From Enterobacteria phage VT2phi_272, in sequence record NC_028656.1: a DNA stretch of 64,000 bases. The stretch is one strand, 5' to 3'. Position numbers: made by a program. Every line of letters starts with the position of its first letter. The first letter of the stretch is position 1. Positions 3,001 to 6,000 of the stretch are shown one piece after another.

Positions 3001-6000
3001 AAAACCACGATAGAGGGTAGTTGATAGATAGTGTTGATTCTGGAAGCTGAAGTTGTTCTGGGATTTTTTGACTGAAATAGCAGTCTTCCAGTTTTTCGAA
3101 CACTTCCCACGCCCGATCGGTTTCGAGCATTTTTGCGTGACGGGCTGCGCCGCGTTCTGTCCAGAGGATGAGGGAGCGAACGTTACGGGCGATTTTCACA
3201 GAGTAGTTAAAAGCTACTCTGTGCTTGAACTCACGTAAAGTTTCACCTTCAAGTTTGAAGAAGTGTTTTTCCTCAATGAAACGACCTTTGTTTTCGTGGT
3301 GATTCTGGCGAATACGAATAGCTTCTGTGCCGTAAAGGTGCGCCAAAAGTTCGGTAGTGATAACGGGGATCTGCTTGTAAGTAATCGTGGAGAGTGTTTC
3401 AACAGAAACTTGAGTTGTCATTATGACGCCCTCGAGTGGTTTCTAAACTATCACCACCGTTAGGTTCGAATCATCGGGTGGTGAGACGTACAGGGTTCGA
3501 ACTACCGGGAAACCAACCGGCGAGCTTTTCAGCTCCCCTATACGCCCCACCATAATTCAGATGTGCGCGTGCATACGACAATAAAAAACACGCTCGCGGC
3601 GTGTCTCTGTCGCGGTTTCTATCCGGGGTTCGAATCCCGACGGTCAACTCGACCGTGCGAAGAATATAATCCCGGATATGTGTTGTCGTCAACAAGTGGC
3701 GTGCTATCATCGAATAGTGTTCTATCCTACTCAGTGAGGTTTAACATGCGTACAACCCAACAATTCAGCATTACATTAACCAACGAAATGGCTGACATGG
3801 TGCGCGCCCGTGTGGCTTCCGGTGCATACGCTTCAGAAAGCGAAGTTATTCGTGAAGGGCTTCGTGCACTGAATGAACGCGACAAAGCAATGGAAGCGTG
3901 GTTAATACACTCAGCCGCGCCGCCACTCGACGCTATTCGTGAGAACCTAGGCAAAGGGCACTCCATTTCACAGGTTCGCTCTGAGATTCGCGCCCGGAAC
4001 TAATCTGCATGGCATATGAAGTGCCACACTAACAAACTGCTCCAGGTATGGGAATAGTGTCACTTGCAGCACCTATTAGAGATCCGATAATGAACATCAT
4101 AGCAAGGTTCTTTTATTTGATAATTTTCTGCATGGCAACATCAGGATGCACTACCACTACGAAAATAAATCGCGGAGATGAAAAGGAACAGTACATCATT
4201 GCCTGTGGTGCCGCTACACCATGGGGAGTATGCTATGATAAAGCCAATGCCCTATGTAAAAATGGATATAAAGACATTTTAAAGGAACAGGGATTTAACA
4301 GGAAAGAATTAACCATTGAGTGTAAATAAGGCCATCATTTGCAACGTTGAAAAAATTCGCCCGTGCTACAGGGAAAAACTCCAGATCCGCTTCGTTTAAC
4401 TACGAGGATTACCACTAATGGCGATGTTTACCCCCCCTCATCCTGGAGAAATTATTGCTGATATTCTGGAAGATCAGAATATTGGAATCAGGGAACTGGC
4501 AAGAGCGCTTGATGTCGCGCCTTCCACTGTTCAGCGACTGGTTTCAGGTAATGCGACAATATCTCCTGAAATGGCTGTTCGTCTCGCTGCTGTCCTGGGG
4601 GGAACTCCGTCTTCATGGATTCGTCTCCAGACGGCATGGAGCCTTGAAAAAGCGGAAAGAGAAGTTGACGTATCTCATCTCTCAACAAAATACCGCCCGG
4701 CAGAAATTTCGCCTCATGCTTAACCACCGCGCCGTCATTCTGGCGGCGTCGGAGAGTGGAGGATATCAGGTTCCGAATTCTGCGTTGTTCTCCGCGTCCA
4801 GGATTTCTTCAATCTTCCGTACTCCCCGATTATTGTATCGGAAGCTTTCTACCTGCTTATCCGAATACGGGGATTTGTCGATGAACCATTTCCCGTATTG
4901 TTCGGTTTTGAGCATGTAGGTATTGGCAATGCGACCAACCTTGTTAGCGGATATTTTGAGTTTTGCTCCAACTTCTGACGCCGAATAGTAATGTTCATTA
5001 ATCATCGGTAGCGGGATTACGTTAGCGCCTACAACGGGATTAACCAGGCTGGCGGCAACGACTTGTTTAGCTTCAGGGGCAAGGTTGGGGAGGAAGCCGA
5101 AAAGGTCTTTCATTGTATCGACGGTCATTTTCAGCGCCCGTGCTTTACGGAATTCCTCAAGGCCGTTAGTCGAATGTTTCGAGGTGATTTTTTGTTGCAG
5201 TTGCTGTTGCATTGACTCCAGTTGATCGACCAGCGAACGACGGACGGATTTAGATTCACGAGCGGCAACCCGAAGCGCTTGTTTATAGGTCATCACAATA
5301 ACAACCTGATCCGCACCGCCTTTTTTCTTATCCATGGGGGTTACGAAAATTTCGTAACCCCCCCCCATCAAGTTCATCTTTGATGCGTGCAATGAAGTCG
5401 TTGTTGCGTACTTCTTTTTCACCGCACAGTCTCCGCGCTTCATTCACCATTTTCAACAGAGCCTGGCTGTCGATAGTTCCATTTTTCATTACATTATTTT
5501 TCATCGTTTTAACCTCTCAAGCTCGCCGTAGCGAGTTCAGATAAAAGAAATCCCCGCGAGTGCGAGGATTCTTATTCACCTTTGACCAAGTTGCAGGTTA
5601 GCCACGGTTAACCTCCTGCGGCGGTTCTGGTAGCGGCATCCAGTGAGTTGCTTGCTCAATACCATTACCCGGCTTAATCGTTGCATCTCCGCGCCGAAAG
5701 GTGCTTCCGGTATAGCGTGCGGAGCATATTAGCGGTTCAACCAGAGAGCTATCGAAATTCACCGAAATAAGCACGTTCTGGCCCTTTTCAGGCATTCGAT
5801 CACTACAGCTTATCCAACTATCCGGAGTTACCGGAGAGTTACCAGCCTCATAAGCGGATTTCATCCAGTGCGTAAGCGTTTCGATGCTTACACATCCGCA
5901 ATCAACGTCTATTTTTTCTTTTTGTTCTGACAACCATTCCTGGAATGACAGCTTGGCAGTCTGGCTTGCTGGATCAATTCGTGGCAGGCCGATATATAGT

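Follow-up and report, generated by a model that had tools for sequence, protein, structure and literature searches.

How do two antitoxin genes come to stand without their toxins, one on each side of a small lipoprotein gene, in the genome of a Shiga toxin (Stx) phage? The question is raised by positions 3746 to 4723 of a 64,000-nucleotide (nt) stretch of Enterobacteria phage VT2phi_272 (NC_028656.1), which as a whole is called the window below. A first description of this region, made from the sequence alone, had presented it as toxin-antitoxin (TA) debris consisting of a ParD-type ribbon-helix-helix (RHH) gene, a lipoprotein gene, a frame of about 30 codons ending in NYEDYH and taken for a HigB remnant, and a HigA-like gene; the listing of open reading frames (ORFs) and the raw sequence placed all four exactly where they had been reported. 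It had suggested that the orphan antitoxins are kept as anti-addiction modules, or that the RHH gene and the lipoprotein gene form a novel pair. The explanation that we consider likely is another one, namely that a moron slot of a lambdoid Stx2a prophage was overwritten here by successive recombination, a case of ordinary prophage mosaicism and TA decay. As reconstructed from DNA comparisons, which show what remains, the slot holds four stubs beside two antitoxin genes and a single intact gene of foreign origin, arranged as follows (related loci are designated by L and a number).

3663-3745, plus strand: parD promoter and leader, left end of the parDE cassette; homology to the cassette of L004 begins at 3663
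3746-4003, plus strand: parD, intact RHH antitoxin gene, 85 amino acids (aa); TIGR02606, PF03693, phrog_6494
4009-4032, plus strand: parE 5' stub, ATG plus four codons (MAYEV), then P, H and a stop; aligned to parE of L004 and L064
~4026-4079, plus strand: 3' stub of a BamE-like lipoprotein gene, ending in TNCSRYGNSVTCSTY and a stop; tblastn match (E = 3e-6) to the C-terminal end of the 143-aa L007 lipoprotein
4090-4329, plus strand: small Cys-rich lipoprotein gene, 79 aa; signal peptide and lipobox
4332-4399, plus strand: 3' stub of a helix-turn-helix (HTH) antitoxin gene from a Gp49-type toxin/HTH module, with a 1-nt deletion; 94% DNA identity to L005 and L006
4396-4418, plus strand: higB 3' stub (LNYEDYH and a stop); homology to the intact higBA of L003 begins at 4396, with 99% identity
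4418-4723, plus strand: higA, intact HTH antitoxin gene, 101 aa; TIGR02607, HTH_3

These pieces are not chance resemblances, because each of them has DNA homologues of 85-99% identity in other prophages. The parE 5' stub (its MAYEV codons at 4009-4023) and the BamE-like 3' stub had escaped the earlier description.

The profile search assigned the RHH protein to the ParD family: it scored above the curated cut-offs of TIGR02606 (53.4 bits, cut-off 46.2) and PF03693 (32.7 bits, cut-off 21), matched phrog_6494 with an E-value of 3.5e-58 and has the N-terminal RHH domain of the family. The cognate ParE gene that should lie downstream is reduced to five codons, and tblastn of the whole 64-kb window found no ParE, HigB or Gp49 toxin, in agreement with the earlier statement that this antitoxin has no ParE. 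Toxin and antitoxin ORFs do not stand together in one operon, as a functional type II system requires, in either of the two modules, whose toxins are stubs. Comparison with related prophages recovered intact partners (parDE in L064 and L004, higBA in L003) and bore out the view of the region as TA debris from which the toxins have been removed. In L064 a ParD identical to that of the window at 79 of 85 residues (93%) is followed by an intact 103-aa ParE (PF05016), and all six protein differences lie within residues 53-85. The window is colinear with L064 over 3351-4022, with the 5' end of an antirepressor gene, the C4 RNA and isrK in common. The parE homology (MTYEV.../MAYEV... in L004/L064) stops at 4022, and in about 323 other E. 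coli genomes a match to window positions 3700-4022 (~87% identity) runs on into an intact ParE gene. The window thus shares with the parDE modules of lambdoid prophages the promoter, the leader and parD (87-96% identical in DNA, 85-93% in protein, with an identical or nearly identical RHH half), but differs from them in that parE is cut after codon 5 and that amino-acid changes are in excess in the toxin-binding tail of ParD. As the alignments show, a parDE module adjoined the isrK promoter, and its parE was cut off behind codon 5 by the joining of a segment from a P22-like phage.

The origin of this segment was traced by blastn, which aligned window positions 4032-4336 with positions 4943-5245 of L007, a P22-like phage contig, at 84.6% identity. 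The L007 lipoprotein gene has ejection-protein genes on one side and the tailspike gene on the other, and is preceded by the gene for a 143-aa lipoprotein with a weak match to the BamE domain; the last 15-18 codons of this BamE-like gene are still readable upstream of the lipoprotein gene in the window. The GC content is 37-39% in the imported segment (37% in the lipoprotein gene), 48-52% in its neighbours and 50% in the window. The comparison therefore shows a low-GC segment of ~300 bp, derived from a P22-like phage, that contains the tail of a BamE-like gene and a complete lipoprotein gene and was joined after parE codon 5. Because of the L007 match, the readable BamE-like tail and the low GC content, we take the lipoprotein gene to have been imported with a piece of its former neighbour and not to have co-evolved with parD.

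To the right of the lipoprotein gene lies the frame that had been taken for a HigB remnant (4329-4418). It has 29 codons, reads RPSFATLKKFARATGKNSRSASFNYEDYH before its stop and overlaps the start of higA as TAATG. The translated frame matched no family in Pfam or NCBIfam, including the HigB-like toxin family PF05015, and it was DNA comparison that resolved it. Only the last 23 nt, seven codons, come from higB, of which 85 of the 92 codons are gone; the HigB of L003 is intact (92 aa, PF05015 at 77 bits) and ends in ...AYILNYEDYH. The preceding part matches, over 4332-4401 and at 94% identity, the 3' end of the HTH gene of L005 and L006, which encode a Gp49-like toxin (PF05973) followed by an HTH_3 antitoxin. 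Codons 2-16 of the frame (PSFATLKKFARATGK) are the in-frame C-terminus of this HTH antitoxin, and in codons 17-23 the same tail continues out of frame, the A-run at 4374-4378 having lost 1 nt; L063 and L066 keep six A's at this run, the deletion being special to the window lineage. On the alignments, the 29-codon frame is a three-part chimera made by a lineage-specific frameshift. The identification as HigB thus stands for LNYEDYH, and the rest of the frame is an antitoxin tail, partly out of frame. The minus strand carries a terminator-like hairpin with a T-run at 4360-4372, inside the HTH-antitoxin stub, which could stop antisense transcription entering from the operon on the right.

Set beside toxin-first higBA modules (PF05015 plus TIGR02607), the window has the same higA and last 23 nt of higB (99% identical) with the same TAATG overlap, but lacks those 85 codons and has the tail of another antitoxin gene in their place. 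From the Gp49/HTH_3 modules of L005 and L006 it retains the last 68 nt of the HTH gene (94%), but neither the toxin nor the first 80 antitoxin codons, and its stub is frameshifted. The stop codon of the HTH gene itself, TAA (4397-4399), overlaps the junction with higB, which falls in the microhomology TTAACT. L006 displays an intermediate state with the Gp49 toxin, the full HTH antitoxin, the higB stub and higA. Together the alignments show the order of events, in which a Gp49/HTH module was earlier fused through the 6-nt microhomology TTAACT to the last seven higB codons, leaving higA, and the P22-like segment later removed the Gp49/HTH module except for its last 68 nt. A comparable scar is found in L064 at 1208-1253, where a higB 3' stub and the first nine higA codons follow the intact parDE; its junction lies 4 nt further left, and the scar is independent of that in the window. 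There are three different left-hand junctions of the higB stub, all within 5 nt of one another.

The HigA-like gene was correctly described as intact: its product reaches 87.2 bits with TIGR02607 (cut-off 47.7) and has the HTH_3 domain of the family (39.7 bits), and of the HigB gene expected upstream seven codons are left. It is identical to the HigB-paired HigA of L003 at 100 of 101 residues (N5T; 99% in DNA), and the Shine-Dalgarno sequence of higA, GAGGA (4404-4408), lies within the higB stub, 9 nt ahead of the ATG. In L066 higA has another substitution. L063 (3674-3979; E. coli GCA_052710425.1) has the same parD-lipoprotein-higA layout with a stop at higA codon 10 (GGA to TGA), and there the gene caller gives a 90-aa, N-terminally shortened product.

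Are the two antitoxins drifting, or does selection keep them? Between the window and the distant, partnered L004, the dN/dS ratio (nonsynonymous over synonymous substitution rate) of parD is 0.17 over the whole gene, with 0.03 for codons 1-52 and 0.28 for codons 53-85. The divergence of the ParD C-terminus from L004 was discarded as proof of decay, two partnered ParD proteins differing equally there (8 of 33 residues). The changes were therefore polarised with L064 and L004 as the partnered copies. On the window branch we counted five nonsynonymous changes and one synonymous change; codons 54-85 hold all six, and the RHH half is free of them. For the partnered branches the counts are 11 nonsynonymous and 23 synonymous (Fisher p = 0.03 against the window branch). 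The orphan copies of L066 and L063 differ from the window parD by a further five nonsynonymous changes and one synonymous change, all in the C-terminal part, so that in sum 10 of the 12 substitutions in orphan parD are nonsynonymous and all lie in the toxin-binding tail. On balance the data favour relaxed constraint and drift of the orphan antitoxins after toxin loss over retention.

Retention would mean that selection keeps ParD and HigA as anti-addiction or anti-defence factors against the toxins of prophages, plasmids or host abortive-infection systems, so that the Stx phage could establish itself or oust rival elements. Some orphan antitoxins of phages are known to defeat TA defence (PMC11825919), which counts for this explanation, as do the integrity of both antitoxin ORFs with their ribosome-binding sites, the near-identity of HigA to its partnered counterpart, the fact that the higB stub was kept to exactly the extent that holds the higA Shine-Dalgarno sequence, and the close spacing of the three left-hand junctions. 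In L006, HigA has a dN of 0 at a dS of 0.16. Related parE genes are also present in 328 of 5426 E. coli genomes, and at least four genomes, 2013C-4081 and three O111:H8 strains, have a related parE together with the window-type phage; NZ_CP027573.1, NZ_CP077600.1, NZ_CP077545.1 and NZ_CP077540.1 each contain, besides the window-type phage with its orphan parD, another prophage in which a related parDE is intact. Against retention stand the mostly nonsynonymous changes of orphan parD in the toxin-binding tail (5:1 on the window branch, 5:1 between orphans), the nonsense codon in the higA of L063 and the truncated higA of L064. Most hosts (O157:H7) appear to lack a related parDE: none of the listed O157:H7 genomes with the window-type phage is among the 60 parE-carrying genomes shown. 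An intact cognate higB occurs in 22 E. coli genomes, none of which is among the listed window-type hosts. Orphan antitoxins are abundant in E. coli genomes (PMC10790755). PADLOC returned no match for ParD or the lipoprotein, and weak generic HTH matches only for HigA. We regard the earlier suggestion that the orphans are kept as anti-addiction modules as unlikely, and prefer their decay within an overwritten slot.

The second suggestion was that parD and the lipoprotein gene belong together. RefSeq gives the lipoprotein a version of 90 aa starting at 4057. Its signal peptide ends in the lipobox ATSG followed by the Cys (MNIIARFFYLIIFCMATSG, then C), and four further Cys follow. Close relatives are rare, with only three clusters above 80% identity among 5.8 billion proteins; a profile search extended the family to 235 clusters at 50% identity, whose members are small proteins. 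The lipobox Cys20 is invariant in 45 family members, with the consensus L-x-G-C-T-T, and the four other Cys are conserved at 90% or more, so that the product of 4090-4329 has both the signal peptide and the lipobox with invariant Cys of a bacterial lipoprotein. It matched nothing in Pfam or NCBIfam, and no family member matches any Pfam domain. The AlphaFold (AF2) model has a beta-beta-alpha-beta-beta fold with a predicted local distance difference test score (pLDDT) of 89, and gave no significant match in a comparison with the PDB. This uncharacterised, disulfide-rich lipoprotein family is the sole element of the locus with some novelty.

Related lipoprotein loci were searched with an alignment of nine sequences. 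In three P22-like contigs (L016, L017 and L025) a family member lies directly downstream of Mnt (Arc and Repressor_Mnt domains), between the tailspike gene and the gene of an ejection-type protein with an SLT domain, and in a fourth (L009) it follows an Arc-type RHH gene with a stop/start overlap, next to gp16. At other loci, including L047, L054, L031 and L007, members stand beside BamE-like or other small lipoproteins, tandem paralogues or unrelated genes. Across 40 other loci, 150 neighbouring ORFs fall into 75 Pfam families, with no recurrent partner.

Could parD and the lipoprotein gene then be a new dedicated module, either a TA-like pair with a toxic lipoprotein or a specific regulator-effector pair? 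The two genes are on the same strand with a gap of 87 bp and no predicted terminator between them, and the four P22-like contigs with a Mnt- or Arc-type RHH gene in front, one with overlapping stop and start, speak in the same direction. However, a parE stub separates the two genes and the tail of the previous upstream neighbour was carried along, so that the junction is a recent accident. In addition, the RHH families differ (ParD in the window, Mnt/Arc in the P22-like contigs), the neighbours at the other loci are heterogeneous, and the window ParD is 93% identical to a ParD that has its ParE partner. We consider a dedicated module very improbable. What survives of the pairing idea is that the family also stands behind a different RHH gene, that of Mnt type, in four P22-like contigs.

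This position points to P22, in which sieA, orf59a and mnt fill the matching interval and are expressed from the prophage (PMC10883804). By analogy, the lipoprotein would repeatedly sit behind RHH genes that are expressed in the lysogen, because a Mnt- or Arc-type RHH gene lies just upstream in the four contigs; and since P22-like phages have the family in the place of sieA, downstream of mnt, the protein is probably an envelope moron made in the lysogen. The likeness to P22 is one of place: in P22-like contigs the family occupies the sieA-orf59a-mnt interval just downstream of mnt, between ejection-protein and tailspike genes, and in the window the lipoprotein gene lies behind an RHH gene beside an antirepressor immunity region, as in the immI/sieA interval. 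There is no sequence relationship to SieA, an inner-membrane protein of ~19 kDa (PMC10883804); the window product is a predicted lipoprotein of 60 residues.

We tentatively suggest, while judging it more doubtful than not, that the lipoprotein stands for a so far overlooked family of envelope factors encoded by prophages. It would be a new protein of superinfection exclusion or lysogenic conversion and would travel repeatedly in a lysogen-expressed RHH operon beside antirepressor immunity regions. Disulfide lipoproteins of similar size from temperate phage or prophage genomes, T5 Llp and the Cor proteins of phi80 and HK022, block receptors or injection. A small phage exclusion lipoprotein is also found in Ltp of TP-J34 (PMC10883804). 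The lipoprotein showed no match to Llp, Cor, Ltp or SieA in sequence, profile or fold. More speculatively, it might act on the beta-barrel assembly machinery (BAM) complex or the outer membrane, given its co-import with the BamE-like stub. The BAM complex or the outer membrane is used by Stx podophages for entry.

The surroundings of the three plus-strand genes define the slot that they occupy between two leftward phage operons. The features at its borders are given here.

2744-3421, minus strand: ORF6N antirepressor gene, left of parD
3474-3557, minus strand: C4 antisense RNA (Rfam, 70 bits)
3583-3656, minus strand: isrK (Rfam, 53 bits)
4723-4748, no strand assigned: conserved right edge of the cassette slot; its 26 nt are likewise found behind higA in L003 and L006, and directly after the HTH gene in L005

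On the left, C4 and isrK lie directly upstream of the ORF6N antirepressor gene, all on the minus strand, and together these three elements are an antirepressor control module of the P1-immI / Gifsy-1 isrK-anrP type (PMC4825925). tRNAs had been suspected at 3460-3640 from GGTTCGAATC repeats; ARAGORN found none there, and Rfam gave C4 and isrK on the minus strand. A 79-aa ORF called by PHANOTATE in PV189404, equivalent to window positions 3471-3710 on the minus strand, overlaps C4 and isrK and is probably spurious. On the right of higA, an antirepressor-like gene at 4766-5504 (minus strand) is split into two ORFs (4766-5443 and 5328-5504) and is marked in RefSeq as a frameshifted pseudogene; it is another decayed gene at the slot border. 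The slot is thus flanked by the isrK/C4/antirepressor operon on the left and by a second antirepressor gene, which is frameshifted, on the right.

This arrangement raises the question of whether ParD was co-opted as a Mnt-like maintenance repressor of the divergent isrK-C4-antirepressor operon, whose promoter overlaps that of parD. A consensus scan placed a sigma-70-like site (TTGTCG-16-TATCAT, with an upstream TG) at 3683-3710 in front of parD, and a divergent promoter-like site aimed at isrK on the minus strand at 3692-3663; the predicted -35 hexamers overlap (3683-3688 on the plus strand, 3692-3687 on the minus strand). The layout mirrors that of P22 immI, where mnt is divergent from arc-ant, and the RHH half of ParD is unchanged. 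Yet the same parD promoter region is found in L004 without an adjoining antirepressor operon, the window differing from L004 at few positions only over the aligned part, 3690-3745. Other TA modules and unrelated morons, such as a DUF805 gene, take the same place beside the ORF6N antirepressor gene in L003, L005 and L006, of which only L003 aligns in the C4/isrK region. Nor did an inverted-repeat search for a ParD operator give an operator-like repeat, its only result being a 6-nt hairpin inside isrK. We give little credence to such a co-option, and return to the overwritten moron slot as the preferred account.

In this slot, parD, the lipoprotein gene and higA would form one lysogen-expressed transcription unit, read from a conserved promoter at 3683-3710 under ParD autoregulation, since no plus-strand terminator-like site was found between 3746 and 4723. 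ParD is probably still the autorepressor of the operon through its unchanged RHH half, and its toxin-binding tail would be drifting. The two antitoxins may be recent orphans, with HigA dispensable and, as its ribosome-binding site was preserved in the higB stub, presumably still translated. The lipoprotein would be the payload under selection. After cleavage by signal peptidase II it is predicted to have 60 residues with two disulfides, to be lipidated at Cys20 and to be anchored in the outer membrane, with Thr at position +2. The basis for this sorting is the Lol rule of E. coli. The role of the lipoprotein at the envelope, with superinfection exclusion or another form of lysogenic conversion as the best guess, is proposed from its position alone.

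Several observations weigh against this account. The close copies are all near-clonal (the lipoprotein is identical in L063 and has a single V-to-L change in L066), and its conservation therefore says little. Transcription from the parD promoter through the lipoprotein gene into higA is deduced from consensus scans only. The substitution counts are small, with six changes on the window branch and six differences between orphan copies. Finally, the orphan HigA of L006 is identical in protein to partnered HigA despite the synonymous divergence given above, which could reflect selection on the orphan HigA or a recent loss of the toxin.

By sequence, the window is a PA2-type Stx2a prophage that has already been sequenced and annotated. 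About 1.5 kb around parD-lipoprotein-higA are 100% identical to phages PA2, vB_EcoP_phi346 and Stx2a_F765, and the same 1.5 kb recur at 100% identity in 42 complete E. coli genomes, most of them O157:H7 and some O111:H8. A tRNA-Arg and an integrase gene adjoin the prophage in strain 2013C-4081. RefSeq names the three genes "ParD family antitoxin", "hypothetical protein" and "HigA family addiction module antitoxin". Literature searches gave general papers about orphan antitoxins, IsrK and SieA, and none that deals with this locus.

In all, the locus offers a clean case, resolved to the base and in a clinically important Stx2a phage, of moron-slot turnover, three TA modules and a P22-derived cassette having overwritten one another within 1 kb. 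Its scars indicate that toxins are lost first and that antitoxins linger and drift, which argues against taking every phage orphan antitoxin as an anti-defence gene. The analysis also corrects a tempting mis-annotation, since the "HigB remnant" frame is a three-part chimera. The lipoprotein is conserved and is probably expressed in lysogens of clade-8-type O157:H7 Stx2a phages; it comes from an uncharacterised family that is found at the site of the P22 exclusion gene, and is the one element of the locus that merits experiment.

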